From IMG/VR virus record IMGVR_UViG_3300013119_001061: 64,000 nucleotides of DNA; one strand, given 5' to 3'. The translations under genes were made by a program, and so were the position numbers. How positions within the stretch are numbered: the first letter of the stretch is position 1; every line of letters starts with the position of its first letter. Below are positions 4,344 to 57,982 of the stretch, in pieces. The notes beneath the pieces were generated by a model that searched no databases, had not been told where the DNA came from, and saw only the letters and a list, made by a program, of their open reading frames with translations. The stretch is from a virus.

Positions 4344-4373
4344 TTCAAATAAGCTTATTTAGTTTTATTGCAG

Positions 4374-5651: not shown

Positions 5652-5661
5652 GAGAAAATAA

Positions 5662-6324: not shown

Positions 6325-6329
6325 ATAAA

Positions 6330-7541: not shown

Positions 7542-7564
7542 TTAGACATTTGGGCTATTTTTGC

Positions 7565-7571
7565 ATATTTA
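7565..7571 (+). promoter_or_regulatory. Putative late-promoter motif ATATTTA (also at 4445, 10807, 13970, 15621, 26307, 42969, 47075, 56971, 59762)
   Basis: The same heptamer occurs just upstream of ten gene starts, mostly structural genes. Confidence 0.7.
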
Positions 7572-7608
7572 TAAGTGACGTTAGTGAGTCCAGTAGGAGA
7601 CTAATCAT

Positions 7609-10803: not shown

Positions 10804-10839
10804 GGTATATTTAAGAATGATATCTTGGAGATTTAAGTA

Positions 10840-13800
10840 ATGGGTGAACGTACTTTTAAAAGCCCGGGAGTAAGAGCTTTTGAGATTGATAGATCAGGAC
10901 CAACTCCTTCTGGGCCTACCGGTGTTCCAGCAGGTGTTATAGGAACCTCACAAGAGGGGCCAGCTTTTGTCCCGGTTACAGTATCAAACTTTTCCGAATT
11001 TGAAACAAAGTTTGGTTTTATAGATGGATCACAATTTGGTCCGTTAGCTGCTCAAGAATGGCTTAAGAATGCAGGAGCTTTGACATATGTTAGGGTTCTT
11101 GGAGCAGGTGATGGAAAAAGAAGATCAACATCTGATGGAACTGTAACGCGAGCAGGATTTGTTGTCGGTGATCAACAACCTTTGGCAACACAATACCTCG
11201 GAGATAATCCGAGTGCCAACACAGGCGGCCCCGGAGGCCAGCTAGGTAGAACATATTTTCTAGGCTGTTATATGTCAGAATCTGCAGGGAGTACAATCTT
11301 GCAAGATTCAGGGATAGAAAGAGCGGCCGATACCGATACTGTTCGAGGAGCATCATCAATACTTCGAGGAGTTCTAATGGCCGCCTCGGGCGTTGCTCTA
11401 AGATTATCTTCCTCGAACGGCGTTGTTAATAGCACGACCCCCGCCTCGTCAGATGATTCTTCAACAGTCAGAGGATTTCTTACGGGTACTGTTAACTTTG
11501 TTAATACATCTCCAAAATTCACTATGCTTCTTCCGGGTCACAAAGGAAGTGATTATCCAAGAGTTCTAACTGCGTCTTTTGACCCTACAGATAAAGATTA
11601 TTTTGCTAATACATTCAATAAGGACCCGCAAAAGATTCAAGATCATGGCTACGTTCTCTATACGCACTACGATGTTTATCCTAGCTTTGCTGTAGTAACA
11701 GGATCAGGAATCACAGCTAAGGGTAGATCTATGATCAATAGCGCAGTTTCACCCGCAGGCCTCTATTCAGGAAGTGCAGATGTCGCATTCTTGCTCACGG
11801 GTGCCTTAGGAAGAGATGCAGGCGCAACAGCCACACCTAATTTTGAAAACTTTAGAGAAAGATTTAGAGCAGCAAGAACACCATTTATTGTATCACAAAA
11901 ATTTGGTGGATCTGCAAAAGATCTATTTAGAGTTCATATGCTTAGCGACGGAGTTCTTAAAGGAAAATCGTCAGATTCAGTAGGGTCTAATACAAAGTAT
12001 AAGCTTTCAATTGAAAACGTCGCTAAGTCATCAGATGCTTTGAATAAATACGGAACATTCGATCTTGTCCTTAGAGACTTCTATGATAATGATGAAAATG
12101 TATTTGTATATGAGTCGCATAGAGGTCTTACCTTAGATCCTACATCGACAAATTATATTGCAAGAAGAATCGGCGATTTAAACACGTATTACGACTTTGA
12201 TCAAGCAGCAGGATCGCAAAAACTTGTTGTAGAAGGAAAATATCCCAATGTTTCAAGTAGAATTCGAGTTGAAGTATCGTCCGATGTAGATGAAGACGAG
12301 ATAGATGATGAAGCACTTCCCGTTGGATTTAGAGGCTTAGATCACCTTCTAACCTCAGGTTCTAATGCATTAGCAGCACCACCCGATTCATCAGGTGGTG
12401 CACATCAAATTCAAAAAAATCCATCGCTTGTTCTAAAATCAGCTGTCCAACCCCCGGTGCCTTTAAGAGAAAATATTGCAATGGGTCTTGCTCCCAAGAA
12501 GATTCCAAACAAATCTCTTTATTGGGGTGTTCAATTTGAAAAGAAAATACTTTTAAATGAGCCAAATAAAAGCTCAGTTATTGATCCCACTATTGCCAGC
12601 TTTACAAAATTCTTTCCAGATTTTGCAGTTTCAAATCTTAATGTTATGACTGGATCAAATGCTGGAGAAGCAGATTCTAGTGGGTTTGTATTAGATTGTG
12701 ATAAGTTTAACAACAATGGCTTTACACTTGAAAATGTTAGAGTTGCAACTGGTTCGAACGGCTTAGCAACAACGGTAGATAGTTATCTTGTTAATAGCTG
12801 GTCCTACGTAAGAGATGGTGATATCTCAATTAGCGATGCAAATAAAACAAGAGCATTCAATGTGTCAGATACAGCAAGCCCAGCTGTTAGAAGACTTGCT
12901 AAATTCACAATGCCATTCCAGCAAGGATTTGATGGATCTAATATATTTGATAAAAATGCTGCAAGCCTATCTAATCTCTCTGCTAAGGGAGAAATGGATG
13001 ACTCTAATAGAGGATTAACAGCAGGAAATACTGTTGCGGCATTTAAAAAAGCGCTAGACGTTATGGGAGAAAAAGCAGATGTTAATATCCAGCTTCTAGC
13101 TCTTCCCGGAATGAGAGTTTCAACTATAACTGATGATGCAATTTCAACTGTTGAAAATAGATTTGATGCACTATACTTGATGGACATTGAAGAAAGAGAT
13201 ACAGTAAACTCTGTAGTTACATCTTCTATTCAAAACGTAAGTGTAACAAATACAGTTTCGTCATTTAATGATAGATCTTTAGACAGTTCATTTGCTGCAG
13301 CATACTTCCCAGACTTGAACGTAGATGTTCAGGTTAAAACACTAAATACAGCAACAAAAACAGTCGTTGCCAATACTGCGACTGTTCAAGTACCGCCTTC
13401 GGTTTCTGTTCTCGGAGCATTTGCATTTAATGATGCTGTAGCATTCCCGTGGTTTGCTCCTGCGGGCTTTGCAAGAGGCTCTATGGGTGCACAATCAATT
13501 GCAGTAAGATTGAATGAAGATAATATCGATGATCTAAACGACAAGAGCATTAATCCAATTATTAGCTTCCCAAATAGTCAAGGCCCGGTCATATTCGGAC
13601 AAAGAACATTGCAATCAGCAGCATCTGCTTTAGACCGCGTAAATGTTAGACGACTCTTGATTGACTTGAGAAGATCTGTAAAACAAGTCGCCCAACAATT
13701 AATTTTTGAACCAAACAGAGAATCAACATTGCAAAGATTTACTGCACTCGTCACTCCGATCATGAAGCGCGTCCAGCAAAATCAGGGCATCGATCGATTC

Positions 13801-13947
13801 CGTGTTATTATTGATTCTAGCACTACAACACAAGTAGATATCGAAAATAATACAGTTAGAGGCAAAATCTTTTTACAGCCTACACGAACAGCAGAGTTTA
13901 TTTCTCTAGATTTTGTTGTAACAAATTCAGGAGTAGAAGGACTTTGA
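10840..13947 (+). CDS. gp18: Tail sheath protein 2 (paralog)
   Basis: SPGVRAFEID, EGPAFVP, PWFAPAGFARG, FGQRTL, LDRVNVRR, FEPN, PTRTAEFI. Confidence 0.95.
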   Translation: MGERTFKSPGVRAFEIDRSGPTPSGPTGVPAGVIGTSQEGPAFVPVTVSNFSEFETKFGFIDGSQFGPLAAQEWLKNAGALTYVRVLGAGDGKRRSTSDGTVTRAGFVVGDQQPLATQYLGDNPSANTGGPGGQLGRTYFLGCYMSESAGSTILQDSGIERAADTDTVRGASSILRGVLMAASGVALRLSSSNGVVNSTTPASSDDSSTVRGFLTGTVNFVNTSPKFTMLLPGHKGSDYPRVLTASFDPTDKDYFANTFNKDPQKIQDHGYVLYTHYDVYPSFAVVTGSGITAKGRSMINSAVSPAGLYSGSADVAFLLTGALGRDAGATATPNFENFRERFRAARTPFIVSQKFGGSAKDLFRVHMLSDGVLKGKSSDSVGSNTKYKLSIENVAKSSDALNKYGTFDLVLRDFYDNDENVFVYESHRGLTLDPTSTNYIARRIGDLNTYYDFDQAAGSQKLVVEGKYPNVSSRIRVEVSSDVDEDEIDDEALPVGFRGLDHLLTSGSNALAAPPDSSGGAHQIQKNPSLVLKSAVQPPVPLRENIAMGLAPKKIPNKSLYWGVQFEKKILLNEPNKSSVIDPTIASFTKFFPDFAVSNLNVMTGSNAGEADSSGFVLDCDKFNNNGFTLENVRVATGSNGLATTVDSYLVNSWSYVRDGDISISDANKTRAFNVSDTASPAVRRLAKFTMPFQQGFDGSNIFDKNAASLSNLSAKGEMDDSNRGLTAGNTVAAFKKALDVMGEKADVNIQLLALPGMRVSTITDDAISTVENRFDALYLMDIEERDTVNSVVTSSIQNVSVTNTVSSFNDRSLDSSFAAAYFPDLNVDVQVKTLNTATKTVVANTATVQVPPSVSVLGAFAFNDAVAFPWFAPAGFARGSMGAQSIAVRLNEDNIDDLNDKSINPIISFPNSQGPVIFGQRTLQSAASALDRVNVRRLLIDLRRSVKQVAQQLIFEPNRESTLQRFTALVTPIMKRVQQNQGIDRFRVIIDSSTTTQVDIENNTVRGKIFLQPTRTAEFISLDFVVTNSGVEGL

Positions 13948-14000
13948 TGGACGTTTTTGTCGCAACTCCATATTTAATAACGTCTGATTAGGAGATCGTA

Positions 14001-14489
14001 ATGGCTGAAACTCTTTCCGTTTCTGAAATGCTTCCAAATAAGTTTGAACCGAAACGCAATTTTCGGTGGGTTTTTTCTATTGAAGGTATTGATGCCTTCT
14101 TAATGAAAGAGGCTGCACGCCCACAAATACAAACTCCAGACAAGGCTATTCCATTTATTAATCACACGCGCTATGTTGCAGGACGAACAACCTTTAGCAC
14201 TCTTGGTGTAACACTTTATGATCCAATTGCACCATCGGGTGCACAACAAGTTATGGAGTGGATTCGCACGCATTTTGAATCAGTCTCAGGGCGATCTGGC
14301 TATGCTGACTTTTATAAACGTGATTGCCAAATTAAAATGCTAGATCCAATCGGAACTGTTGTAGAATTGTGGGACATTAAAGGTGCATTTATTACAGATG
14401 CTAACTATGGAACTCTAAGCTATGACAGTGATGATCCATCAAATATTACACTCACGCTAAGATTTGACAATTGCGTTCTTCAATACTGA
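14001..14489 (+). CDS. gp19: Tail tube protein (gp19-like)
   Basis: 162 aa after the sheaths; FEPKR.FRW, YVAGR, EW, YKRD, L.Y..DD...ITLTLRFD. Confidence 0.9.
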   Translation: MAETLSVSEMLPNKFEPKRNFRWVFSIEGIDAFLMKEAARPQIQTPDKAIPFINHTRYVAGRTTFSTLGVTLYDPIAPSGAQQVMEWIRTHFESVSGRSGYADFYKRDCQIKMLDPIGTVVELWDIKGAFITDANYGTLSYDSDDPSNITLTLRFDNCVLQY

Positions 14490-14566
14490 TCTTTCTTAAA
14501 TAATTTGTCAATTTAGAGTTTAACAGTTTTTGTGCCTGTAATACAATTACAGCGTAGGGAGACTTT

Positions 14567-15415
14567 ATGTCTAGAAATGAAATTTTTAATAAGGCTGGAG
14601 GCACACCGCCAGTTCCTTCAATGATGAAAGAAACACAGTCACAACTTTCTCAAGAATTGGGATTTGATATTCCGGTCGAGACTGTTCCTTTGCCTTCTCT
14701 TGGGAAGGTTTATCCTGAGAATCATCCACTTCATATGTCACAAACTGTTGATATCAGAGCAATGACAGCCAGGGAAGAAGATATCCTTACGTCAAGAGCA
14801 TTATTAAAAAACGGTAGTATGATTACACGCTTAATTGGATCTTGTCTGACTGATAAAAATATTGACCCGAATACACTTCTATCAGGTGATAGAAATGCAA
14901 TTTTAACTGCTATTAGAATTACCGGATATGGGTCTGACTATAATTCTAATATTACATGCCCATCTTGTGAAGTAGGACAAGTTCATATTTGCAATCTAAC
15001 AGACTTGCCAATCAAGTCACTTGATATTGACCCAATAGCACAAGGCCAGAATGAATTTGAAATGGTTTTGCCTATGACCGGTAAAAGAATAACTCTGAAG
15101 TTCACTACAGGCTATGATGAAAAAGAGTCACAAACAATAGAAGAAAGAAAAAAGAAGCAAGGTCTTGTGTCAGAATCTTCTGTTACAGATAACCTATTCA
15201 GGGCAATTCTTTCAATTGAAGGAAATTCTGATAGGACGTTTATCAACAAGTTTGTTCGTAATATGCCTGCAAAAGATTCTTTAGCAGCAAGATCATATAT
15301 AAAGCTTAATGAACCAACCGTAATGATGTCTTCACATTTTACATGCAAGAATTGCGCGCACGAGGAGGTGCTTCCCCTTCCAATAGGGGCTACCTTTCTT
15401 TGGCCTGAATCCTGA
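14567..15415 (+). CDS. Tail/baseplate assembly chaperone (gp26-like) with two CxxC pairs
   Basis: VPLPSLGKVY, MTAREEDILTS, GDRNAIL..IRITGYG, CPSC, CKNC, FLWP end; lies between tube and tape measure. Confidence 0.8.
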   Translation: MSRNEIFNKAGGTPPVPSMMKETQSQLSQELGFDIPVETVPLPSLGKVYPENHPLHMSQTVDIRAMTAREEDILTSRALLKNGSMITRLIGSCLTDKNIDPNTLLSGDRNAILTAIRITGYGSDYNSNITCPSCEVGQVHICNLTDLPIKSLDIDPIAQGQNEFEMVLPMTGKRITLKFTTGYDEKESQTIEERKKKQGLVSESSVTDNLFRAILSIEGNSDRTFINKFVRNMPAKDSLAARSYIKLNEPTVMMSSHFTCKNCAHEEVLPLPIGATFLWPES

Positions 15416-15617
15416 AGATAGAGAAATATTTCTTGAAAGTGCTTTTTTATTAATGCGCTATGGAGGATTCTCATATTCTGAGTGTTATAAACTGCCTGTG
15501 CAATATAGAACATGGTTTATCGACAGAATAGTAAAAGAAGTTAGTAAGGAAAAAAATGCTAATAGAAGCGCAAGAAATACTAGAAATAATTCTAATATGA
15601 CAAGAAGATTCACTTAG
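15399..15617 (+). CDS. +1-frame extension of the tail chaperone (G/GT-like); an independent ATG start at 15453 is also possible
   Basis: Not in the ORF track; FGLNPEDREIFLESAFLLMRYGGFSYSECYKLPVQYRTWFIDRIVKE... overlaps the end of 14567..15415 at TTT CTT TGG. Confidence 0.7.
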   Translation, partial: FGLNPEDREIFLESAFLLMRYGGFSYSECYKLPVQYRTWFIDRIVKEVSKEKNANRSARNTRNNSNMTRRFT

Positions 15618-15649
15618 CGCATATTTAGCCATAAGGATCTATAAAACTC

Positions 15650-17713
15650 ATGGCAGACTCTAAAAAACCCGAGCAGACTACCAAGTCAGTTGAAGAATTG
15701 ACTGCAGCCTTAGAGCGTTTGCAGTCTGTTTTAAGTAACTTTAATTCTGGAGCAACAGGCCTAACAGATCTTAAAAAATCTCTAGAAAAGCACCAGGAAC
15801 TAGTTGCGCAAGTTGCAGAATCACAAAACAAGTCAACACGTGCATTTTTAGAAAACAGTAAAAAACATAAAGCAGTTCAAATTGAAGCTTCTCGAGCTAT
15901 GAATCTTCATAATCAAACACTTCAAAGCAATAAAATATCTATAGACAAATATAACGACGCACTTAAGGCAGTAGGCATTACTATTGGTGCAAAATTACTT
16001 GCAAAAAAACTTCACTTAGAAAAGCTGGGAAATGCATTTAATAGTCTGGGCAAACCTTTGCTCGACATTGAGCAAAGATCAATAAAGACGTTTGGAACTA
16101 TTGAAACAGGCGCCGGCCGCCTAGCGTCTGAGGGCGGCAAGGCACTAAGATCATTTCTTTCTGAGCAAAATACAGGTCTAGCTGCTTCTAGCGCTTCTTT
16201 GCAAACTTTTTCATTCAGTATTGAAAAAGCAAGAGAACAAGCTGTTGAAGAGCTTGAAGGATTAACAAAGGCAGCAGGTGCTAATGCAGAAAGATTTGCA
16301 GCAGAACTCTCTGATCCAAAAGCTCTAATAGGAATAAGGGCAATGAGAGAAGCCCTTGGTCTTGCCACAGAAGATGTGGGCACTTATATAGACAGAGCAG
16401 CTGCCTTTGGAACATCTGTCTCAGCACAACTCGCATCAGCTGTAAGAGCAACTAAAAAATATGCTAAAGAAACAGGTGTTTCTTTTGGACAAGTTAAGAA
16501 AGGCCAGGATGTACTAAGAAAAAATACAAAATCATTTGCAACATTTTCAGAACAACAACTGGCAAGAGTAGCAGCCGCCTCTGCAAAAACAGGGGTCTCA
16601 TTAGCAACAATGGGAGGTGGCCTCATTGATAGCTTTGATAGTTTTGATCAAGCTGCTGAAAAAGCTGCAATGCTTGGGCAGTCATTTGGAATGAGCATCG
16701 ATGCCTTCGATCTATTTGCTGCAGAGTCTCCCGAAGAAAGATTGCAATTAATTCAAAAGTCAGCTGAACAAGCGGGTATTGATATTGCTAATATGGGCCG
16801 CCGGGAACTCAATTACTTGTCTGAGCTTACAGGTATGGGTGTTGAAGATACAATGAAAGCATTAGGTCAAGGAGGCTTAGAAGTAGCTGCTGAAGTATCA
16901 AGTATGTCAGGAGCTGAAGATTTACAAGCTTCTCTTGTAGCGGCTCAAGGAGAAAACTCTAGAACAGTCAAAGAATTGACAACTGCGATAAGGGCACACA
17001 TTCCTACATTTGTTGATTCTGGTGAAGATATTTTGGCAGGAAGCATTGATAGACTTATTAGAAATGCAACCGGTTTAAGGGGCGCCGCCGAAGAACAAGT
17101 AGGTGTTAGTGTCAGGGGCGCAATATCAGGAAAAGTACTTCCAGAATCTGGACAATCTCCGGGTGGCATCATGGGCCAAATTGCAAAAATTACATCAGAC
17201 CCCAAATGGGCTAAAGCACAACAAGAAATGATGACGGTATTTTTGCATGAGGGCGAAGCCGGCGCAACCAGACTATCAGAAGTTTTTGTAAAACATGCAG
17301 AAAAAATAACACAAACATCATCAACTTCGGCAGGAATAAAACAGCTAGCATCAGAAATAACAGAGTACGGCAAAGAAAAAATCCAAAAAATCAAAGATGC
17401 GGGAGGAAAAATCCTGCAATCAAACTTAGCAAAAAATGCTAAAAGAATGTTGCCAGGATCTGATCAGGGCGGCACAACCGAAAGATCAGAAATGCTTTCT
17501 GCTACTGCAGAGACAGAAACAAATGCGGCAATGAGAAAAGGTTTGGCTCCGTCTTCGTCAAGCGGCCCAATAAATCTTGTTGTCAATGTTTCTCTTCCTG
17601 TTGACGGCGATGCAATTGCAACTGCTGCATACAAAGGAAGTATTCGTCCTGATGTAACGGGTGAGCAGGCACTTCAAGCAGCCGCCGCCGGCGAAAACGT
17701 GGCAGATCAATAA
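15650..17713 (+). CDS. Probable tape measure protein
   Basis: Ala/Gly/Lys-rich helical 687-aa protein directly after the chaperone. Confidence 0.7.
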   Translation: MADSKKPEQTTKSVEELTAALERLQSVLSNFNSGATGLTDLKKSLEKHQELVAQVAESQNKSTRAFLENSKKHKAVQIEASRAMNLHNQTLQSNKISIDKYNDALKAVGITIGAKLLAKKLHLEKLGNAFNSLGKPLLDIEQRSIKTFGTIETGAGRLASEGGKALRSFLSEQNTGLAASSASLQTFSFSIEKAREQAVEELEGLTKAAGANAERFAAELSDPKALIGIRAMREALGLATEDVGTYIDRAAAFGTSVSAQLASAVRATKKYAKETGVSFGQVKKGQDVLRKNTKSFATFSEQQLARVAAASAKTGVSLATMGGGLIDSFDSFDQAAEKAAMLGQSFGMSIDAFDLFAAESPEERLQLIQKSAEQAGIDIANMGRRELNYLSELTGMGVEDTMKALGQGGLEVAAEVSSMSGAEDLQASLVAAQGENSRTVKELTTAIRAHIPTFVDSGEDILAGSIDRLIRNATGLRGAAEEQVGVSVRGAISGKVLPESGQSPGGIMGQIAKITSDPKWAKAQQEMMTVFLHEGEAGATRLSEVFVKHAEKITQTSSTSAGIKQLASEITEYGKEKIQKIKDAGGKILQSNLAKNAKRMLPGSDQGGTTERSEMLSATAETETNAAMRKGLAPSSSSGPINLVVNVSLPVDGDAIATAAYKGSIRPDVTGEQALQAAAAGENVADQ

Positions 17714-24505: not shown

Positions 24506-25696
24506 ATGAATATTTGCATTCACAAAAGAATCTTGGGAACAACCCAGCATTTGTCGACTAATTTTGAGTCAAAATCTTCATGGGTAGAAGATCCAGATAG
24601 TGAAGATCTAACAATTGGATTCAAAAATAACGAGACTATTAATATTGTTTCCTTCCTTTTGAATAAGAAAATTCCTGATTCACCTGATAAGAAGTTTGCT
24701 CTGCCGTTTCGTCATTCAAGCTTAGAAAATATCTTGTGGTCTCATGTGTTGCCCAAGAAGGAATATAGAAAGTATTTCCAGAGTATCCAGAATGCAATTG
24801 GCGAAACTTTAAAGTCTGATCAATACGAATACTTTAATAATCGTATCTCTATTCAACAGAAGCTTATCTCCTTTCTTGAGCCATCTAAAATTGATGAAAA
24901 AGTTTTTGGAAAATATTGCGCAGATCCAGAGTTAGTCAACAAGTCTGTTTTGACAACATTTGCGCCAAAAAAAGGGTTTGCAAAAAATGTTGACTATAAT
25001 CTAGTAGGGACAAATACAGGAAGGCTCACGATATTAGCTGGTCCACAAATCCTTACTCTTAAAAAAGAACTAAGAAATATTTTGACGTCTCGATTTGAAG
25101 GCGGAAAGATAATCCAGTTTGACTATACTAGCCTTGAGCCAAGAGTTGCATTGATGTTATCAGGCAAGAATCCGGAAAGAGATATCTACACCAGTCTATG
25201 CAAGCAAGTTTTGGGAGGCAAATACGGCCGCCAAACTGCTAAGCTTCTTACTATCGCAACTCTCTATGGCATGGGAATCAATCGTGTCAAAGACTTGCTC
25301 GGTGTAAGTAAGATCACTGCACGAGAAGTTTTAGACCAGCTTGAAGATTTCTTTGGTGTTGAAGATATCAAAAAACAATTAGAAAAAGAGGCAGAATCCG
25401 GATTTATTAAAAACTACTTTGGTAGAAACATTCGAGTTAGAAACAATGCTTCACATGTCTTATATAATAACTATATTCAATCAACAGCAATGGATGCAGC
25501 GCTTGAAGGATTCTTTAAAGTAGTTCAAAACATAAAGAGGGAAAAATACCAGTGCATTCCGATCTTTGTTTTGCATGATGCTATTATTTTTGATTGTCAT
25601 CCTGAGTGCTTTGACAAATTAGAAGTTATAATGAATCCAGGACAAAATTTATCTAGTTTTGAATCACAACTTTATATGGAGGCTGAAGAAGTATAA
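24506..25696 (+). CDS. Family A DNA polymerase, polymerase domain only
   Basis: TGRL, motif A DYTSLEPR, motif B R..AK....LYG, NYFGR, NNYIQSTA, motif C LHDA. Confidence 0.85.
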   Translation: MNICIHKRILGTTQHLSTNFESKSSWVEDPDSEDLTIGFKNNETINIVSFLLNKKIPDSPDKKFALPFRHSSLENILWSHVLPKKEYRKYFQSIQNAIGETLKSDQYEYFNNRISIQQKLISFLEPSKIDEKVFGKYCADPELVNKSVLTTFAPKKGFAKNVDYNLVGTNTGRLTILAGPQILTLKKELRNILTSRFEGGKIIQFDYTSLEPRVALMLSGKNPERDIYTSLCKQVLGGKYGRQTAKLLTIATLYGMGINRVKDLLGVSKITAREVLDQLEDFFGVEDIKKQLEKEAESGFIKNYFGRNIRVRNNASHVLYNNYIQSTAMDAALEGFFKVVQNIKREKYQCIPIFVLHDAIIFDCHPECFDKLEVIMNPGQNLSSFESQLYMEAEEV

Positions 25697-27884: not shown

Positions 27885-28640
27885 ATGGCTAAGGCAAAAA
27901 AGCCTGCAAAGACTGCAAAGAAAAAGTCAAAAGTATCTGACGATTTTACGGCAGACTTAATCAGGTCTCTTAATAAGGATCACGGAGGACGAATCGCATA
28001 CAATCTCAGTGTAGATGAGTCACCGACCCACGTGAAAGCGTGGGTCGGCACTGGGATTAGGCAGCTCGATCTACTGGTATCTAATCGAAAAAACGGCGGG
28101 CTACCCTGTGGCAGAATTGTCGAGATCTTTGGGCCACCATCAATCGGTAAGTCACATATCGCTTTGCAGATTGCGCGAAACACGCAATCAATGGGTGGCA
28201 TCGTTGTCTATATTGACACAGAGAACGGTACATCAGTAGAGAATCTGGCACTCCTCGGTGTTGATGTATCAAAGCGGTTTGTGTTTATCGAGACTGCCTG
28301 CACTGAGGAAGTGTTTGAAGTCGCAGAGTCAACGATCATGAAAGCCCGCGGCCTCAATAAAGATATTCCTATTACGATTATTTGGGATTCTGTGGCAGCA
28401 TCTTCTCCCAGGGCAGAGCTAACAGGCGATTATGATCAAAACTCTATCGGTCTTCAAGCAAGAACGATCTCAAAGGGCATGAGAAAGATCACCCAGGTCT
28501 TTGGTAGCACGAATACACTGTTCATCTGTCTAAATCAGACACGAACAAAGATTGGTGTTATGTACGGGGATCCCATGTGCGTCGACCCGTTTACGACTAA
28601 AATCAAAGTCAGGTATGATAACTCTAATTTCGGCCTATAG
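27885..28640 (+). CDS. recA: RecA/UvsX N-terminal half plus 20-aa split-intein N-fragment
   Basis: GGLPCGRIVEIFGPPSIGKS, YIDTE, WDSVAA, LNQTRTKIGVMYGDPM, then CVDPFTTKIKVRYDNSNFGL*. Confidence 0.95.
   Translation: MAKAKKPAKTAKKKSKVSDDFTADLIRSLNKDHGGRIAYNLSVDESPTHVKAWVGTGIRQLDLLVSNRKNGGLPCGRIVEIFGPPSIGKSHIALQIARNTQSMGGIVVYIDTENGTSVENLALLGVDVSKRFVFIETACTEEVFEVAESTIMKARGLNKDIPITIIWDSVAASSPRAELTGDYDQNSIGLQARTISKGMRKITQVFGSTNTLFICLNQTRTKIGVMYGDPMCVDPFTTKIKVRYDNSNFGL
28578..28637 (+). mobile_element. Atypical split intein, IntN (20 aa)
   Basis: Cys1 block A-like CVDPFTTKIKVR begins exactly where RecA similarity stops. Confidence 0.85.
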
Positions 28641-28685: not shown

Positions 28686-29696
28686 ATGATAGATTATTTT
28701 GATTTTGATTTTAAAATAAAAGATAATAAACCAATAACTAAAATATCTTTAAAGGCTAAGTTTAAAAAAGAAAAGCCAGCAATGAGAGAATCTGGTTATC
28801 CATTTAGTGGAGTAGAGCTGGGTTATTATATTCATCATATTGATGATAAAAATCTGGCTAACAATGTTTGGAAATTTAGAAAGAAGCTAGCAAATAAAAA
28901 CTATTTAATTGACTTCCTATTTGAAAACAACGTTATTTCATTGAAGGAATATGAGATATCAAATCTGTGGAAACTCAGGACGAGAAAAAAGTTTGTCAAA
29001 AACCATTCCATCGCTATGTCGTCTGAAGCTGCCAGGAAAAACATGTCAGATAGCTATGACAGGGAATTGCATTCAAAGATTCATAAAGAGTTGTGGAAAA
29101 ATAATCGTGAAAAGTATATAAAAGCAACACAGTCACCCAAAGTAAAAAAAAGAAGAATTGCATCATTTAAAAAGCACCTTGAAGATCCTGCTAACAAGAA
29201 AAAATATGATGAAGCAATGCAAAATCCTGAAAGAATTGAAAAAATAAGTAAAGCTGCTAAAAAGATGTGGGAAAACGCATCTAATGAGAAAAGAAATAAA
29301 ATGAGATCAAATTGGTCAAAAAAGCTTTCTTATAAAGGCAAGAAAATGAATTCAATAGAATTTAAAATTGCTAACTTGTTAGACGAAAAAAATATAAACT
29401 GGGAATATGAACCAGTAATTGAGTTTGAAAATTCATTTGTCCAGCCAGATTTTATAGTAAATAGTAGTATAGTAATTGAATGTTTCGGCGACTTTTGGCA
29501 TGCCAACCCATCGAAGTACGAAGATGATTTCGTCTTATATGCTGCAAAAACTGCAAAAGCTCAGAGAGCGTTTGATAAAAATAGACTAGGTTTGTTAAGT
29601 GAAAAATTTGAACATATTGTAATTTTGTGGGAAAATGAAATCAATAGTTCTGATATAGAAACAATATTAAAAGAGAGGGTTTTATGCCTATTGTAG
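28686..29696 (+). CDS. Free-standing endonuclease between the recA halves (Vsr/DUF559-like PD-(D/E)xK)
   Basis: Lys-rich helical repeats, NSIE..I..LL, QPDF, IECFGDFWHANP, ILWENE. Confidence 0.85.
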   Translation: MIDYFDFDFKIKDNKPITKISLKAKFKKEKPAMRESGYPFSGVELGYYIHHIDDKNLANNVWKFRKKLANKNYLIDFLFENNVISLKEYEISNLWKLRTRKKFVKNHSIAMSSEAARKNMSDSYDRELHSKIHKELWKNNREKYIKATQSPKVKKRRIASFKKHLEDPANKKKYDEAMQNPERIEKISKAAKKMWENASNEKRNKMRSNWSKKLSYKGKKMNSIEFKIANLLDEKNINWEYEPVIEFENSFVQPDFIVNSSIVIECFGDFWHANPSKYEDDFVLYAAKTAKAQRAFDKNRLGLLSEKFEHIVILWENEINSSDIETILKERVLCLL

Positions 29697-30049
29697 AAGA
29701 AGAATTGACGTTTTTCGAATTCGCTGAAAAGTTTTTAAATCTAAATGATATGAAAACACCGACAAACCTAGACATATCTAGTCTGGGCATAGAGATTGAA
29801 ACTCTGCTAAATGATGGAACTGCTGGTTTTCGGCCAATGAATTCGTTTATCGTGAAAGATCAAGTCGACTCCTACTGCAGGATTGATGAGCTAAGAGGAA
29901 CTAGCAATCACAGAGTTTTGTTCGGTAATGAGTACATACCTCTGTCTGAGCACCCAGAATCTATGATTATTGAAGAGCCAATGTGTGTCGTAGATACATC
30001 TGTTGAAGAGACAGAAAATTACATAGCAAATGGCCAGGTAAATCACAAT
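29684..30049 (+). mobile_element. Atypical split intein, IntC (carries blocks B, F and G)
   Basis: Block B TSNH, block F VVDTSV..TENYIANG, terminal HN, Thr as +1 residue. Confidence 0.88.
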
Positions 30050-30559
30050 ACGACTCCCGGCGGCGCCGCAATACCATTTCACTCCTCAGTTCGAATTAAA
30101 CTCGGCGCCGGCTCTCAAATCAAGAACAAAGAGGGCGATATCATAGGGATTAATGTCTCGGCGAAGACAATCAAGAACAAAGTGGCGCACCCATTCAGAA
30201 CTTGTCATTTTGAGATTCACTTTGGTGTCGGTGTCAAAGAGCATGAGCAAATCACAGATCTTCTTAGATCGTCTGACGACGTAGAGTTCGAAGGAAAGAC
30301 ATACTCTGTCGAAGGTGCAGGAGCTTGGAAGACACTATCAGTTATTGATTCAAAAACCGGTGAACTTATAGTAGAAAAGAAGTTCACCAAAAGTGGAATG
30401 GAAGATTTGTTAAACAGTGATGAGTATTTGCCTTATATTGAGACGATGCTAGAGAAGACTCTTATTAAGAATTTTTCCGGCAATCTAGATATTAATGCAG
30501 ATTCTTATGAAGAGGTCCGAGCAGTAGCAATGGACCTCGCGGAGGCAGAGTTAAAATGA
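29684..30559 (+). CDS. recA: Split-intein C-fragment (122 aa) plus RecA C-terminal half
   Basis: ...NYIANGQVNHN then TTPGGAAIPFHSSVRIKL, KNKVAHPFR. Confidence 0.95.
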   Translation: MPIVEEELTFFEFAEKFLNLNDMKTPTNLDISSLGIEIETLLNDGTAGFRPMNSFIVKDQVDSYCRIDELRGTSNHRVLFGNEYIPLSEHPESMIIEEPMCVVDTSVEETENYIANGQVNHNTTPGGAAIPFHSSVRIKLGAGSQIKNKEGDIIGINVSAKTIKNKVAHPFRTCHFEIHFGVGVKEHEQITDLLRSSDDVEFEGKTYSVEGAGAWKTLSVIDSKTGELIVEKKFTKSGMEDLLNSDEYLPYIETMLEKTLIKNFSGNLDINADSYEEVRAVAMDLAEAELK

Positions 30560-31020
30560 GCATGTTCGTTAAAGTAAAGCTAACACATCCCGATGCAAAG
30601 CTACCATCTCAAAAGATAGGTGATGTAGGCTGGGATCTAACATCAGTCGAGTCAGGAAATATTCCTGCCGGAAAAGTAACGTCAGTTTCTACCGGTGTTG
30701 TCTTAGCAGAATCACCATTCACGACTGATATTCATAAGTCTGTTATTATAAAAGTAGAAGGAAGATCAGGTTTAGCATTTAGACACGCCGTTTTTCCAGT
30801 GGGTGGTATCATTGACCCAGGATATCGAGGCGAGATATCTGTAATGCTCTATAATGGCGGTGACAAAGATTACCGGTTTGAAAAGGGCGATCGAATAGCA
30901 CAGCTGGTAATCTATGATGTGCATGCGAAGACTAGTAGTAACAAAACACAGTTCCTAGAAGTTGATACTGTTCATCCATCTCATCGAGGAGACAAGGGCT
31001 TTGGATCGTCAGGCAGATAG
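30556..31020 (+). CDS. dut: Trimeric dUTPase
   Basis: GDVGWDL, GRSGLA, GIIDPGYRGEI, GDRIAQL, RGDKGFGSSG. Confidence 0.95.
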   Translation: MSMFVKVKLTHPDAKLPSQKIGDVGWDLTSVESGNIPAGKVTSVSTGVVLAESPFTTDIHKSVIIKVEGRSGLAFRHAVFPVGGIIDPGYRGEISVMLYNGGDKDYRFEKGDRIAQLVIYDVHAKTSSNKTQFLEVDTVHPSHRGDKGFGSSGR

Positions 31021-42345: not shown

Positions 42346-42576
42346 ATGGCAAAGAAAATTTATAGACTTGATGATGAGGTAGTTGCAGAGGTCGCCCGGT
42401 CACTCCAGCGCGCCCTTTTAACCGGAACTGACATTGTCGATCACATTCGTGCAATTGAGCTCAATGTAGCCCGAGGAACGGGAGCAATCCAGCTTAGTGC
42501 TGAGTATCTAGCTCGAACACAAGAGAATGACAATCGAATGGTCGACGAAGCCCAAGAGCTTACACTCGAGAACTAA
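42346..42576 (+). CDS. Hypothetical protein
   Basis: SD AGGA; LQRALLTGTDIVDHIR. Confidence 0.6.
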   Translation: MAKKIYRLDDEVVAEVARSLQRALLTGTDIVDHIRAIELNVARGTGAIQLSAEYLARTQENDNRMVDEAQELTLEN

Positions 42577-42580
42577 TACA

Positions 42581-42958
42581 GTGACATATACAGACAGATT
42601 AGACTGTATCTTCCATTTGCAAGAAGCATTTATGAAGGATCTGTCTGATAAAAAAGAAAAGCTGCCAGAATGGCCCGTAGATCCAAGCGATAAAAAAGCC
42701 CAGCAGTTCATCAGGGATATCATTCATCGAGGCACAGAGGAATCGTATGAAGCTCTGGCGCACCTTAAGAACTGGAAGCCTCACAAACACACTGAAACTA
42801 AAGAGTTCAATAGGGCCGAGTTCCTAGAGGAAATGGTAGATGACTTTACCTATAAGCTCGAGGCTCTGATTCTAATGGGATATGACCCGCAAGAGTTCTT
42901 CGATGCGTTCTGCGACAAGAACCGAAAGAATTTAGATAGGGTAAACGGCGATTATTGA
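42581..42958 (+). CDS. All-alpha (dimeric dUTPase / T4 gp56 / MazG-like) dNTP pyrophosphatase
   Basis: EESYEAL.HLKNWKPH, EFLEEMVD, KN..N..R; likely GTG start at 42581. Confidence 0.75.
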   Translation: MTYTDRLDCIFHLQEAFMKDLSDKKEKLPEWPVDPSDKKAQQFIRDIIHRGTEESYEALAHLKNWKPHKHTETKEFNRAEFLEEMVDDFTYKLEALILMGYDPQEFFDAFCDKNRKNLDRVNGDY

Positions 42959-46123: not shown

Positions 46124-47089
46124 ATGATAGACAAACTAAACCTACAGCGGCTCTTCGAGGTCCAGAATGAATTTTCTGAACTGTTCAATAAAAGAAATGA
46201 CCTAACCATAGGAGAAAGAGAAAAGCTCACACAGGAGTTCTCTCTGGCACTTCACAGTGAAATCTCGTCACTAATCAGCGAGATCAATTTCAAGAGTCAC
46301 TCCCGAGACAAGAAGCAGGTTGTTGAAAACAGCATTCTATTTGAAGGTGTTGATATCTTCCGCTATCTTCTGGCAATCTTAAATCTATGGGGGTTCTCGG
46401 CCGAGGACTTTGCACAAGCATTTGACGATAAAGAGAACTACCTCCAAGTCAAGTATGTCAAGAATGCTCAAAAGTGGGAAGGTCAACCTGTAATTCTGGT
46501 TGATGCTGATGATGTTATTGTAGAGTTCAGAAAAGGATACAGTGATTATCTCAATTCACATGAAGGAATTACTGTTGATCCTGCCTCATCGGAATACTAC
46601 TTTACCAGTGGTATTCCAAAAGAGTTGTATAATCCTGAGCAGCTATTCCAGGATTTTATTGACCAGCGCCGCCTAAAAAACCTCGAGGCTACAACATCAA
46701 CAATTGAGGCTTTAAATGAACTATATGATCAAGGTTACTGGATTCAGATTCTAACTGCACGACCTTCCGCCAACAAGACATGTCAATATGACACCTACAG
46801 CTGGCTCGAGAATAGCGGACTCAAGTTTCACAAAGTTGACTTCTCGCCTGAAAAAATGATCTGGGCAGCTCACAGCCCATACTACGATGAAGGAAAGATT
46901 GTCTGTGCAATTGACGATTCAGCCAAACATGCAATGGAATATGCAAAGCACGGAATCAAGGTTGCAGCACCAGTTCAGCCCTATAATGGTGAGCTAGAAG
47001 GCGTTGACAATATTGTCATGTTCAAAACAGGTGAAGAATTAAGAGAAGTAGTGAAACAATTCTCTCATTCACGAATATTTAGTATATGA
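46124..47089 (+). CDS. Fusion of all-alpha dNTP pyrophosphatase and HAD 5'(3')-deoxyribonucleotidase
   Basis: N-part: EISSLISEINFK.H...EGVDIFRY; C-part: VDADDVI, ILTAR, IDDS. Confidence 0.75.
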   Translation: MIDKLNLQRLFEVQNEFSELFNKRNDLTIGEREKLTQEFSLALHSEISSLISEINFKSHSRDKKQVVENSILFEGVDIFRYLLAILNLWGFSAEDFAQAFDDKENYLQVKYVKNAQKWEGQPVILVDADDVIVEFRKGYSDYLNSHEGITVDPASSEYYFTSGIPKELYNPEQLFQDFIDQRRLKNLEATTSTIEALNELYDQGYWIQILTARPSANKTCQYDTYSWLENSGLKFHKVDFSPEKMIWAAHSPYYDEGKIVCAIDDSAKHAMEYAKHGIKVAAPVQPYNGELEGVDNIVMFKTGEELREVVKQFSHSRIFSI

Positions 47090-47766
47090 TCAAAATTACA
47101 GTAAAAGAGTTACGAAGCTTAATCAGGGAATCTATGATGGATTTAAATCCTGATCTAAAACCAGATTGCGATACTTTTGCAGTCTTTGACTTTGATGAAA
47201 CACTTGCTTTGACAAATTCAAGCGTTCTCGTTAAAAACAAAGAAGGCAAGACAATCAAGGAATTGTCTCCCGCAGAATATGCAATTTACAAAGAAGAGCC
47301 AGGTGAGGTATTCGACTTTAGTGAGTTTGATATTGTTAAAGATGGTCGTCCTACTCCTCTTATGAATATTTTGAGAGACGTTGCATCATGCGGCACTACA
47401 GCTGCTGCAATCCTTACAGCCCGAGGTCCCGCAGCGAAAGGTCCTATTAGAGACTTTCTTAAGACAATGGGCATAAAGCTGCAGATTATCGATACTGTAA
47501 ATACATCAAATCCTCAAGCTAAGGCTGACAAGATTCGAGGATATGTAACGTCATTTACACCACGAGTTCTTCACTTTTTTGAGGATTCACCCAAAAATAT
47601 CGAAGCAGTTCGGCAGTTAGCAAAGAAAAATCCTGCAATGTCAAATGTTCAAATTGTGCTCCATCACATTGTTGATCCCGAGGGCGACATGAAGATCAAT
47701 ATTGAAGAGGTCGAGAACGAAGGAATGGAAGCAGTGACTGCCATAATTGATTCAAACCACGTTTGA
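47086..47766 (+). CDS. HAD-family phosphatase with an N-terminal ELRSLIRE leader
   Basis: FDFDETL, ILTARG, FFEDS.KN. Confidence 0.75.
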   Translation: MIKITVKELRSLIRESMMDLNPDLKPDCDTFAVFDFDETLALTNSSVLVKNKEGKTIKELSPAEYAIYKEEPGEVFDFSEFDIVKDGRPTPLMNILRDVASCGTTAAAILTARGPAAKGPIRDFLKTMGIKLQIIDTVNTSNPQAKADKIRGYVTSFTPRVLHFFEDSPKNIEAVRQLAKKNPAMSNVQIVLHHIVDPEGDMKINIEEVENEGMEAVTAIIDSNHV

Positions 47767-47791
47767 ACATTACCTCCTGATAGCATATAAT
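47763..47791 (+). promoter_or_regulatory. Sigma70-like promoter for the ThyX2 cluster
   Basis: TTGAAC-N17-TATAAT. Confidence 0.75.
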
Positions 47792-47820
47792 CATTTATAA
47801 TAATTCATAAGGAGGCTACT

Positions 47821-48804
47821 TTGCCACAAAATCTAGACCTGACGCCTGTGACTCTTCCAATGCCATTACGATTTGGGGAGACTCCACAAACAGAATTCGT
47901 TAACGATCTTGACGCACTTAAAGTTGAGCTTGTTGATCATCCAACCGCAGAACAAATTAGAAACGTTGCATATCGATATGTTAAAGCAACCTGGGCAGAT
48001 TCACCTGAGGAAACAAACCCCTTGAATGCCACCCAGCGCGAGCTAAGTGAGACGCTTGAAGAAGTTCTCCAGTTTCGTGCTCTTCCCGCCGGAATGGAGG
48101 CTATGAGCTTCACATTCCTCGTCTCAGGTATTGATCTCCAGACTGTAACACATTTGATTCGTCATCGTGCAGGAACCTATGCAGCACAATGCACGGGCGA
48201 CCGCTGGCAGTCACATTCTCGGGTTTTGGTACCGGCTGCTGTACAAAACACCCCAGAGCTTTATGAGCGCTGGCAGAAGAATGTTCAAGAAAGCAAGCAG
48301 CTATATGCTGATATGATTGACACACGAAAGATTTCAATTATGGATGCACGTACAATCTTGCCCCGCGCCGTTGAGACCTTCTATTACGCCAGGTTCAATC
48401 TAAAAGATCTAATGGGCTTCATTCGTCAGCGGTGTGATAAGCAGATCCAGCCGGCTGCCGACAATATTATGGCAGCACAAATGGCCTTGGCAGTATGTAG
48501 GGTAATTCCTGAGGCAGCTATGTCTATCGGAACGCGTACTCTTACAGGCCCGGCAATGCATTATGTTCGAAACATGAGATCAGGAACCGGAACTAATCTT
48601 TATTGGCCTGATGCAGACACTGATGCCAAGATCGAATATCATCCTGAGGATACGATCTATCAGGCAGAACGTGACAACGTTAATGGAACTAATCCTCCGG
48701 CAAATGAGACAGGTGAGAATAGCAAGTTCCGTCAGCATTGGAATGGATTACTATCACAGATTCGTGATATTGAGACTGAGTACAAGGATAAGATGGGGCG
48801 ATAA
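47821..48804 (+). CDS. Divergent second ThyX-fold flavoprotein
   Basis: E..SFTF...GI, THLIRHRAGTYAAQCTGDR, DARTILP, FIRQRC; TTG start after AAGGAGG. Confidence 0.8.
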   Translation: MPQNLDLTPVTLPMPLRFGETPQTEFVNDLDALKVELVDHPTAEQIRNVAYRYVKATWADSPEETNPLNATQRELSETLEEVLQFRALPAGMEAMSFTFLVSGIDLQTVTHLIRHRAGTYAAQCTGDRWQSHSRVLVPAAVQNTPELYERWQKNVQESKQLYADMIDTRKISIMDARTILPRAVETFYYARFNLKDLMGFIRQRCDKQIQPAADNIMAAQMALAVCRVIPEAAMSIGTRTLTGPAMHYVRNMRSGTGTNLYWPDADTDAKIEYHPEDTIYQAERDNVNGTNPPANETGENSKFRQHWNGLLSQIRDIETEYKDKMGR

Positions 48805-49518: not shown

Positions 49519-49956
49519 ATGAAGGTTTATATCGCATCACCGTTTTTCAACCCAAAGCAAGTTGAGCAAGTCGAGTTTATGAAGACTGCATTGTCTGAGA
49601 CCGGCCATGAGTATTTTAGCCCCAAGGACTTTTTTGTCCTCAAGCCTAATGCAACGCAAGAAGATCGAACACGAATCTTTGATGTCAATTGCGAGAAGAT
49701 CCAGTGGGCTGACTTTGTTCTTTGCAATACTGAGGCAAAAGATCTGGGAACGATTTGGGAAGCCGGATACGCATACGGAATCGATAAACCAGTAGCATTC
49801 TTTGCTGAGGGTTTGCCAGAGGGTAAATTTAACGTAATGCTTAGTGAGGGCGGAATGTCAGTCAACACGACCCGCGAAGGTCTTACTGAGTACTTACAAA
49901 AATGCACTGACACAAATGAGCTTGTCTTCGAGCAGTATTCAGGCAATACTCAATAG
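49519..49956 (+). CDS. Nucleoside 2'-deoxyribosyltransferase / dNMP N-glycosidase family protein
   Basis: VYIASPFF, FSP, DLGTIWEAGYA, NVML. Confidence 0.88.
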   Translation: MKVYIASPFFNPKQVEQVEFMKTALSETGHEYFSPKDFFVLKPNATQEDRTRIFDVNCEKIQWADFVLCNTEAKDLGTIWEAGYAYGIDKPVAFFAEGLPEGKFNVMLSEGGMSVNTTREGLTEYLQKCTDTNELVFEQYSGNTQ

Positions 49957-50649: not shown

Positions 50650-51618
50650 ATGAGAATTGCAATTACAGGCGAAGCTGGGTTTATCGGTAGAAACTTACCT
50701 GTCTCCATTGAAGGTTTGGGGCATACATTTGTTCCACTTTTAAATCACGAGAAAATGGTTTGTCTTTCAACCGGTGAACCCTGCGTTCATCAAAATGATT
50801 CCGATCTTTGGGCAGAGGTCTTTGAAGAAGAAGATATCGATGTTGTCATTCATAACGCTGCTGTAGTCGGAACAGATGTAGTTGCGCTCAGCCCAAACGA
50901 AGCATCGCTTACAAACGTTTCTGGAACTCATGTGATTTGTCAGGCTGCAAAGAAAGCAGATGTTGCTGTATCATATATGGGCACAACGGTAATCTATGAC
51001 ACTGGTGCATATCAACATCAGCTTATACACGAGAACTCTGAGAGAATGCCAACCACGCTGTATGGCGCCCAAAAACTAGCATCAGAATATATTGTCATGT
51101 CTTCGAAGATTAAGTTTAATGTCATCCGCCCGCTTTTTGCTTACGGCGGAGTTGGTGATATGAACTCACTGATATCAAAGACTCTGTATGCTGTCAAAGC
51201 GGGAAGGGAAAATATTGATATGTTCCTCGACCCAAAGAAGATTAAAGACTACATGCACGTAACAGATTATTGTGATGCAGTAGCTTTATCAATCCATAGA
51301 GGTATGTGGGGGACTGACTACAACGTTTCCGCCGAGAATCCATATAATACGTGGGAGATTGCTAAGATGATATCAGATACAGCAGGAAAAGATCTGGAAA
51401 ATATCATTAACTGGCATCCCGAAACAGATTATCTGGGAAATCATAGACTTACGTCAGACAAGTTCAGAAATGAAACAAGTTGGAAACCTAAATTCGATCT
51501 TAAGGCAGGTATCGAATTATCGTGGGAGTCAATAAGCAAAGATGAGTCTGGGTATGACCCGCTGATTTATCTAGACGAAGCGTCTGAAAGAGGATTAGAT
51601 CTCACACAGTTTTATTAG
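50650..51618 (+). CDS. NAD-dependent (NDP-sugar) epimerase/dehydratase, extended SDR
   Basis: TGEAGFIG, HNAA, YGAQK, DYMHV.D. Confidence 0.9.
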   Translation: MRIAITGEAGFIGRNLPVSIEGLGHTFVPLLNHEKMVCLSTGEPCVHQNDSDLWAEVFEEEDIDVVIHNAAVVGTDVVALSPNEASLTNVSGTHVICQAAKKADVAVSYMGTTVIYDTGAYQHQLIHENSERMPTTLYGAQKLASEYIVMSSKIKFNVIRPLFAYGGVGDMNSLISKTLYAVKAGRENIDMFLDPKKIKDYMHVTDYCDAVALSIHRGMWGTDYNVSAENPYNTWEIAKMISDTAGKDLENIINWHPETDYLGNHRLTSDKFRNETSWKPKFDLKAGIELSWESISKDESGYDPLIYLDEASERGLDLTQFY

Positions 51619-57574: not shown

Positions 57575-57982
57575 GTGTACTATAAATTAAAAGCCATTGC
57601 TCAGAATTATTCTGAAAATGCACACAATTACAACATCTCAGCATGCGTCACAGTAGGCAAGACGAGGTTCTACGGCTGGAACAGCTATGACACTCATCCA
57701 TTTGCCAAGCGTGAGCTCAAGTGTTCATCTACTGGCGAGAGCGTGGTAAGTTATTGCTACCATGCTGAGGTTCATGCACTTCAAAAGGCACTGAGGTTCA
57801 CGCAGAAAATGAAATCCGCTGATATTGCGGTAGCAAGAGTTCTGGCAGATGGAAGCTTTACAATGGCAAAGCCCTGTGAACACTGCCAGGGTAAAATGAG
57901 AGATATTGGCATCAATCCATCAAAGATCAAGTATACGAATTGGGATGGAAACTTTGTTACGCTTAATTCGTATGAGTGTTGA
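57575..57982 (+). CDS. Zn-dependent cytidine/dCMP deaminase-like protein
   Basis: HAE ... KPCEHC. Confidence 0.85.
   Translation: MYYKLKAIAQNYSENAHNYNISACVTVGKTRFYGWNSYDTHPFAKRELKCSSTGESVVSYCYHAEVHALQKALRFTQKMKSADIAVARVLADGSFTMAKPCEHCQGKMRDIGINPSKIKYTNWDGNFVTLNSYEC

Follow-up and report, generated by a model that had tools for sequence, protein, structure and literature searches.

Within the 64,000-nucleotide stretch of the virus record IMGVR_UViG_3300013119_001061 that we analyzed (the window), the open reading frame (ORF) at positions 47821–48804 encodes a protein of 327 amino acids related to the flavin-dependent thymidylate synthase ThyX. For ease of description we will call it the paralog, because the same window also encodes a canonical ThyX. 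The paralog belongs to a long-form clade, which we name for its Leu88 and its C-T-G-D loop, in which the arginines expected to hold the cofactor and a uracil nucleotide are retained and the residues around the site of methylene transfer are rebuilt. Tentatively, and with a confidence somewhat short of even, we favor the view that the paralog would be a flavin-dependent enzyme converting dUMP to a C5-altered product other than dTMP, and that this product would feed phage DNA.

The relationship to ThyX is clear at the level of the fold. Pfam PF02511 (Thy1) matches residues 37–230 with 73 bits against a gathering score of 24.8, and it was the only family matched in a Pfam scan of the paralog, with no hit to PF00303 (Thymidylat_synt). 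An AlphaFold2 model made with 76 homologues as input (mean pLDDT 95.8, pTM 0.92) returns ThyX structures (E values of 1e-10 to 1e-9) and PolB as its top Foldseek matches, and VIA superposes it over ∼200–214 residues on the ThyX enzymes of Mycobacterium tuberculosis (3gwc, Z 17.3) and Thermotoga maritima (1o26, Z 16.2). These results predict a ThyX-fold protein. The paralog nevertheless falls below the cut-off of the NCBIfam thyX equivalog TIGR02170 (55.8 versus 87.9 bits). An earlier, preliminary description made from the sequence alone had noted N- and C-terminal extensions relative to the 238 residues of the canonical protein. Because the Thy1 domain is limited to residues 37–230, the conserved extra segments at both ends are real, and both are modeled confidently; the last helix (302–314), however, pairs with the C-terminal helix of ThyX in some structural alignments, so that part of the C-terminal “extension” may be an insertion. 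The promoter and strong Shine–Dalgarno sequence that the same description had assigned to the gene are present as consensus matches, the AAGGAGG ending four bases 5′ of the TTG start. This start is supported by the relatives, which share the position of the start codon (58 of 78 loci have ATG there and 11 have TTG) and a conserved N terminus, MPQN..L.PV.LPM.

The active site has changed at several positions at once (residues of the T. maritima enzyme are marked Tm below). The loop R114–R128 reads RHRAGTYAAQCTGDR, as against RHRTWSYNEISRRY (RHRTW-SYNEISRRY) in the canonical ThyX of the window. The RHR of the RHR-x7-S signature is kept, and the Ser eight residues past it is Cys124, as first described; a multiple sequence alignment, a family profile aligned to M. 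tuberculosis ThyX, and hhalign all agree on this. The alteration of the following Arg/Tyr pattern is likewise borne out, in two versions. The profile equates Cys124 with Ser105 (Tm Ser88), Gly126 with Arg107 (Tm Arg90), and Asp127 with Tyr108 (Tm Tyr91), whereas hhalign against the phage's own kind of canonical ThyX treats Thr125–Gly126 as inserted and places Arg128–Trp129 opposite Arg-Tyr. It also places Leu88 of the paralog opposite the conserved His of GHxSxLEH (Tm His53). Whichever alignment is taken, no hydroxyl remains from the Ser or the Tyr, the His is gone, and the S-x-R-Y pair is absent. The equivalents of Tm Asn85 and Tm Glu86 are both Ala. Leu88 is invariant in the close-family alignment, and among 95 diverse representatives the stacking His has become Leu in 82. 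As aligned, then, it is the whole loop together with the folate/flavin-stacking His that is replaced, more than one residue being changed.

In canonical ThyX, Ser88 and Tyr91 have been termed strictly conserved and critical; the S88A, R90A, and Y91A mutations slow consumption of the carbinolamine; and His53, bonded by Tyr91 and Asn85, stacks on folate or reduced flavin (PMC8316439, PMC11940539). Loss of the His53/Ser88/Tyr91 network suggests that methylene hand-over or folate use in the paralog differs from that of the canonical enzyme. Other residues have been retained. The profile identifies Arg177 and Arg204 as the equivalents of Tm Arg147 and Tm Arg174, and the near-universal residues of the 95 representatives are R114 (95), R116 (90), R177 (91), and R204 (93), together with Y162. 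Tm Arg174 activates dUMP through N3-H/O4 of the uracil, by deprotonation of N3 (PMC8316439), and retention of its counterpart R204 favors a uracil nucleotide over dCMP as the substrate. Conservation is looser at the position of R128, which is R or K in just 45 of the 95, and at the His of RHR, which is kept in 36 and lost in 59. We considered whether a catalytic Tyr, His, or Arg had been relocated to the C-terminal segment and rejected this, as just Pro263 is near-universal there. Separately, 41 of the 95, which are far-clade members such as P0156, P0168, P0188, P0197, and P0203, have a second conserved Cys two residues past the Tm Arg174 equivalent (R-x-C), where the clade of the paralog has Asp.

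It is less obvious what the cysteine contributes. The preliminary description had noted that a Cys nucleophile is typical of ThyA-fold enzymes and had suggested dCMP methylation or hydroxymethylation as an example of new chemistry; spelled out, the proposal would make Cys124 a ThyA-like Michael nucleophile with which a ThyX fold acts on dCMP. The residue replaces a Ser that adjoins both substrate and flavin, and the motif CTGDR recurs in 119 of 120 close database homologues and, without exception, in the 81 ThyX-like ORFs of our clustered set (the window, the Geobacillus phage GR1, and 79 IMG/VR loci), a conservation far beyond chance. Across the deep clade, too, Cys predominates (62 of the 95, against 13 with S, 9 with G, 7 with T, and 2 with A). 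An all-alpha pyrophosphatase beside a thymidylate synthase (TS)-like enzyme, moreover, resembles the pairing of dCTPase and dCMP hydroxymethylase in T4. Finally, TrmFO, a flavin/folate methyltransferase of another fold, uses cysteines (PMC5954106).

The wider clade speaks against this proposal. In a subclade nested within the clade of the paralog (L103–L182), the motif is RHR-x7-VHGDR in 75 of 80 loci, THADR in four, and CHGDR in one. This Val subclade is common in viral contigs of 35–75 kb and keeps a tight operon of genes for a nucleoside 2-deoxyribosyltransferase (NDT)-like protein, an HD phosphohydrolase, and the ThyX-like protein in 30–32 of the 32 loci that span 12 kb or more; an example is L134:6740–8888, and the complete genomes of the group carry no other ThyX or ThyA. 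Elsewhere the residue is T, A, G, or S, and the tree requires ∼8–10 changes between Cys and non-Cys states. Since the same operon persists with Val and the Cys has changed repeatedly, it is no obligatory nucleophile for the clade, and we rejected it in that role; by this pattern, the clade function needs no thiol at the position of Tm Ser88. The dCMP half of the proposal fares little better. The uracil-activating Arg is kept in 93 of the 95 diverse members, no acidic replacement suiting the N4 amino group of cytosine is seen, and the dCMP deaminase of the window would drain dCMP to dUMP. We consider the combined proposal very unlikely. In the subfamily of the paralog, where it is strictly constrained, Cys124 may instead tune the environment of flavin N5 and C4=O.

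A variety of observations show how large and how predominantly viral this family is. The database homologues of the paralog form 1325 clusters at 90% identity, nearly all of 315–335 amino acids and metagenomic, and 549 representatives at 50% identity; Atlas clusters of the family are 86–97% viral. When 185,579 species genomes were scanned for peptides of the close family, one match resulted, and it fell on a phage-like contig of a metagenome-assembled genome (MAG); that scan used exact close-family peptides, and the virus-only statement therefore covers the close family rather than the far clades. The deep clade as a whole is known almost only from viruses. In a FastTree phylogeny, an 82-row “long” clade (support 96) stands apart from canonical ThyX, and the paralog falls in a subclade of 45–50 rows (support 100). 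The sole cultured carrier found is Geobacillus phage GR1, whose ThyX-like protein is 51% identical to the paralog. Our literature search found no paper on this clade, on a ThyX-like hydroxymethylase, or on a Cys-type ThyX. The window itself derives from a large marine phage that is uncultured and encodes ribonucleotide reductase, gyrase/topoisomerase subunits, DnaB, tail fibers, a split DnaE, and proteins resembling RecA and gp32, and among Logan contigs (2019) the window was matched in marine and seawater metagenome runs alone, with no RNA run among them. Alongside the split DnaE, the phage has a 396-amino acid ORF with a family-A DNA polymerase domain (24506–25696); its RecA-like ORFs are two (27885–28640 and 29684–30559), the second matching the C-terminal part of RecA only.

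If the paralog made dTMP, it would do so in a genome that is already supplied. Judged by its domain matches, the window encodes a full canonical dTMP route of dCMP deaminase, trimeric dUTPase, and ThyX (Table 1), and the paralog is just 25% identical to that ThyX across 73 amino acids. Besides the window, six of the nine large marine contigs examined carry both genes; ThyA, for which four of these contigs were also tested, is absent from all four. Among sister phages, furthermore, canonical ThyX comes in two unrelated types (the window gene versus those of L087/L088 and the cluster-24 loci; ∼23–25% identity), which occupy different genome positions, in genome pairs whose paralogs are 51–58% identical; L076, whose paralog ORF had been wrongly extracted, was left out of this comparison. 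The canonical function has thus been kept, replaced, or independently re-acquired despite the presence of the paralog, which is a stable core gene of this ∼200-kb marine lineage. That combination argues against the paralog merely supplying dTMP and argues for a non-redundant job in the lineage. The suggestion of a new substrate or chemistry, which the preliminary description had made in broad terms, survives to this extent: low identity, failure against TIGR02170, loss of the catalytic network, and coexistence together make the paralog a candidate for neofunctionalization rather than a plain duplicate. The specifics of that suggestion find no support.

Several observations weigh against a product other than dTMP. 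First, seven of eight smaller genomes that are complete or nearly so (GR1, G010, G011, and G015–G018, complete or at least 93% complete) have no TS-family gene besides the ThyX-like one, which is the pattern expected of an ordinary phage TS; G014 carries both a canonical ThyX and the ThyX-like gene, and G012 adds a ThyA-like gene. Second, the flanking all-alpha pyrophosphatase matches the dimeric dUTPase family and the kinase matches Tmk, making dUTP → dUMP → dTMP → dTDP a simple alternative. Third, canonical ThyX is retained in the window phage and its relatives, and thymidine kinase in some, which fits full replacement of thymine poorly. Fourth, where Cys124 and Asp127 would lie with respect to flavin and substrate is itself read from alignments. 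Finally, no DNA analysis has been reported for GR1.

These points lead to the alternative that the paralog is an ordinary flavin-dependent TS (dUMP to dTMP) with a different loop. It would then supply the TS step in an old dTTP cassette of phages, made up of a dimeric-type dUTPase, the TS, and a Tmk-like kinase, with the NDT-like protein and 5′-nucleotidase recycling deoxyribose, and the large marine phages would carry an extra canonical ThyX. Besides its solitary occurrence in the smaller genomes, this account can draw on the retention of R204, R177, and both arginines of RHR, and on a dUTPase_2 match of the neighbor that lies above the Pfam cut-off. The variation of the Tm Ser88 position among C, V, T, A, G, and S also means that the residue is not critical in the clade and that its change need not mean new chemistry. 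Crystal structures exist of the T. maritima S88A and S88C mutants (3g4a and 3g4c), and these mutants are said to keep activity (Koehn et al., 2009). On the other side stand the replacement of His53, Asn85, Ser88, and Tyr91, all of which have been termed conserved and critical for canonical catalysis; the score below the equivalog cut-off; and the stable coexistence in marine phages of this lineage, whose canonical ThyX has been swapped between two unrelated types and not lost. In addition, an adjoining 5′-deoxynucleotidase would oppose dTMP supply, and the close family is absent from the cellular genomes scanned with its exact peptides. An ordinary TS is a serious possibility, to which we give appreciably less than an even chance.

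The neighborhood of the gene bears on both readings. The cassette of the window and its conservation in the clustered set are given in Table 1. A Fpg/Nei-type glycosylase accompanies many marine loci (for example L033:7644–8441), and a cluster HMM search found none among the window ORFs.

Table 1. Features of the window and occurrence of cassette genes among the 81 clustered loci
Feature	Position in window	Strand	Basis or remark	Loci, placement relative to ThyX-like gene
ThyX-like paralog, long-form “Leu88/C-T-G-D loop” clade	47821..48804	+	327 aa, TTG start; Pfam Thy1, AlphaFold2, VIA
Active-site loop R114–R128 of paralog	48160..48204	+	translation; Cys124 codon 48190–48192
Promoter-like TTGAAC-17-TATAAT	47763..47791	+	consensus match alone
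Shine–Dalgarno AAGGAGG	47810..47816	+	consensus match alone
Canonical ThyX, 238 aa	40935..41651	+	Pfam Thy1 165 bits; TIGR02170 171.1 bits (cut-off 87.9)
Trimeric dUTPase, canonical dTMP route	30556..31020	+	PF00692 75.8 bits
dCMP deaminase-like, canonical dTMP route	57575..57982	+	PF00383 33.4 bits
All-alpha NTP pyrophosphatase (dUTPase_2/MazG-like) fused to NT5C-type HAD 5′-deoxynucleotidase	46124..47089	+	PF08761 26.3 bits, PF06941 20.2 bits, PHROGs
HAD-like protein directly 5′ of paralog	47086..47766	+	PHROG 415, weak	cluster in 16 loci, at ∼−60 bp
Second MazG-like nucleotide pyrophosphohydrolase	42527..42958	+	PHROGs 12184, 173; clusters with N-terminal domain of 46124 ORF
Conserved 80-aa ORF	42346..42576	+	no Pfam or PHROG match	65/81, upstream, median ∼1.6 kb
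NDT-like (NDT family)	49519..49956	+	PF05014 57.8 bits; PDB 6evs E 1e-14	73/81, downstream, median 320 bp
SDR NDP-sugar epimerase/dehydratase-like	50650..51618	+	PF01370 97 bits	55/81, downstream, median ∼3.1 kb
MazG/dUTPase_2-like all-alpha pyrophosphatases				78/81, upstream, usually two copies
Fpg/Nei glycosylase				52/81, upstream, median ∼2.4 kb
DnaE				38/81, downstream, median ∼2.5 kb
Tmk-like kinase				28/81, downstream, median ∼6 kb

Conservation of partners among these 81 loci could reflect lineage inertia, and we therefore compared more distant relatives. L082 (PBHZ01000014.1, positions 1–16870, from a “Methanobacteriota archaeon” MAG), whose ThyX-like protein shows 46% identity, has the overlapping genes NDT–HD–ThyX-like–MazG–DnaE–Tmk-like. 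It also carries DnaB, its genes all run in one direction, and its DnaE is 64% identical to a marine phage DnaE; it has the appearance of a piece of phage DNA that was binned with an archaeal MAG. In GR1, the order is NDT, HD protein, glycosyltransferase, nitroreductase-type flavoprotein, and then the ThyX-like gene and DnaE. The glycosyltransferase (459 amino acids) and HD protein lie 2–4 kb upstream of the ThyX-like gene, and the nitroreductase-family flavoprotein (L001:7286–7885), which could supply reduced flavin, lies 115 bp upstream. In the far clade (∼25–30% identity, contigs of 19–96 kb), the ThyX-like gene directly follows a dUTPase_2-like gene and directly precedes a Tmk-like gene; three loci also have NDT. 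The far-clade dUTPase_2-like domain forms the C-terminal 100 residues of proteins of 400–450 amino acids (L097:6638–7945, L099:6430–7779, L094:2603–3817, and L093:6684–7967), whose first ∼320 residues have no Pfam match. Directly 3′ of one far-clade ThyX-like gene, an ORF of 327 amino acids (L089:4564–5547) has a P-loop kinase-like N terminus and a weak match to the uracil-DNA-glycosylase superfamily (22.6 bits, slightly below cut-off).

The NDT partner is thus found in the Val subclade, the far clade, L082, and GR1 as well as in the marine loci, and the HD, HAD, and MazG phosphohydrolases, non-homologous yet alternating, share one slot of the cassette. What is conserved is therefore a set in which the ThyX-like protein is joined by an NDT-like protein and by a nucleotide phosphohydrolase of the HD, HAD, or all-alpha type; a kinase is often added, and DnaE is a neighbor. 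The same partners are kept across ∼25% sequence identity and in unrelated phage lineages.

In our favored reading, that of a dUMP-converting enzyme whose product differs from dTMP, the paralog would be the pyrimidine-conversion step of this cassette. The fold, the residue pattern, the structure of the clade, the gene neighborhood, and the coexistence with canonical ThyX are observed; we infer flavin binding, the substrate, the product, and any role in DNA modification. A flavin-binding ThyX-fold enzyme that keeps the cofactor and uracil-nucleotide arginines would most likely act on a uracil nucleotide, dUMP. Its rebuilt elements are the loop and the His, through which canonical ThyX controls the binding of folate and promotes passage of the methylene from flavin N5 to dUMP, and Cys124, at the Tm Ser88 site that contacts flavin C4=O and the N5-carbinolamine, would probably tune that step without acting as a ThyA-type nucleophile. 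Two products are candidates. Capture of water by the exocyclic methylene could give 5-hydroxymethyl-dUMP, or a flavin hydroperoxide could give 5-hydroxy-dUMP. Once phosphorylated, this product would enter phage DNA, and competing pools would be trimmed by the phosphohydrolases and the NDT-like enzyme.

The paralog might also be no one-carbon transferase. It could catalyze other flavoenzyme chemistry, such as reduction of C5=C6, it could be a PolB-like ribonucleotide enzyme, or it could be a non-catalytic nucleotide-binding subunit. The folate-stacking His and the Ser/Tyr pair that handles the carbinolamine are lost, as is the His of RHR in most diverse members; the closest structural match is PolB, a UMP/dUMP methylase; and the partners (NDT and 5′-nucleotidases) act on nucleosides. 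Oppositely, the nucleotide-binding arginines and the whole 327-residue chain are strongly conserved, the kinase and polymerase neighbors indicate a deoxynucleotide bound for DNA, and no positive evidence points to any specific alternative reaction. We regard this group of possibilities as improbable.

A broader proposition is that the Leu88/C-T-G-D clade is the first family with the ThyX fold, and hence natively flavin-dependent, to be dedicated to making a pyrimidine deoxynucleotide outside the canonical set, such as 5-hydroxymethyl- or 5-hydroxy-dUMP, and that together with its pyrophosphatase/nucleotidase, NDT-like, and kinase partners it defines a widespread and so far undescribed DNA-modification pathway. 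We judge this rather unlikely as it stands. Were it true, the pathway would span marine jumbo phages, smaller uncultured phages of metagenome contigs, and a Geobacillus phage, and would open a further route, this one based on flavin, to pyrimidines modified at C5 in the DNA of phages. To our knowledge, all experimentally known routes to such bases in phage DNA begin with ThyA-fold enzymes. Many uncultured phage genomes would become candidates for modified DNA, which bears on evasion of restriction and CRISPR, on sequencing bias, and on enzyme tools. If the paralog is instead a plain TS, ThyX catalysis would be possible without Ser88, Tyr91, and His53, which bears on the debated ThyX mechanism and on inhibitor design. 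The cultured carrier GR1 and the natural Cys, Val, and Thr variants make both outcomes directly testable.

Several known systems offer instructive, if inexact, parallels. First, canonical ThyX, or FDTS (EC 2.1.1.148; TM0449 and M. tuberculosis ThyX; PF02511, TIGR02170), has the same fold (Z 16–17, root-mean-square deviation 2.5–3.1 Å over ∼200–214 residues) and shares RHR and the arginines equivalent to Tm R147 and R174. It differs in sequence (∼19–20% identity), in length (∼220–240 versus 327 amino acids, the paralog having conserved extra N- and C-terminal segments), and in the active site, where the paralog has Ser88 → Cys, Arg90–Tyr91 replaced or shifted, His53 → Leu, and Asn85/Glu86 → Ala/Ala. 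Second, PolB (4p5a and 4p5b), the ThyX paralog of polyoxin biosynthesis and a C5-methylase of UMP and dUMP, is a precedent for a ThyX copy neofunctionalized in the presence of an ordinary one (PMC5954106). Foldseek ranks it first for the paralog (E 6e-11, TM 0.76 on the target), a structural match as good as that to ThyX, although the profile match to PolB spans just the C-terminal half, residues 137–234. PolB, however, is of canonical size and belongs to an antibiotic cluster in bacterial secondary metabolism, whereas the paralog lies in a phage replication and nucleotide module.

Third, the ThyA-fold modifiers of phages, namely T4 dCMP hydroxymethylase, the dUMP hydroxymethylases, and the 5-hydroxy-dCMP synthases of RB69 and DLP3, follow a like logic, in which a TS-like enzyme is joined by a deoxynucleoside triphosphate pyrophosphatase and a deoxynucleoside monophosphate kinase so that a modified pyrimidine reaches the phage DNA (PMC8989533, PMC13326640). 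Their fold is unrelated and their Cys nucleophile essential, whereas in the clade of the paralog the Cys is dispensable. TS-fold enzymes have been recruited to the hypermodification of phage DNA, and ThyA-fold homologues among them have been re-tooled into flavin-using 5-hydroxy-dCMP synthases (PMC13326640), which shows that TS folds are plastic in phages, though the fold concerned is other than that of ThyX. Finally, the RNA uracil methyltransferases TrmFO and RlmFO carry out flavin-mediated methylene transfer with cysteines near the flavin N5-CH2 adduct (PMC5954106). By analogy, these cysteines are a possible model for the role of Cys124; with a different fold and a polynucleotide substrate, the likeness to the paralog is mechanistic only.

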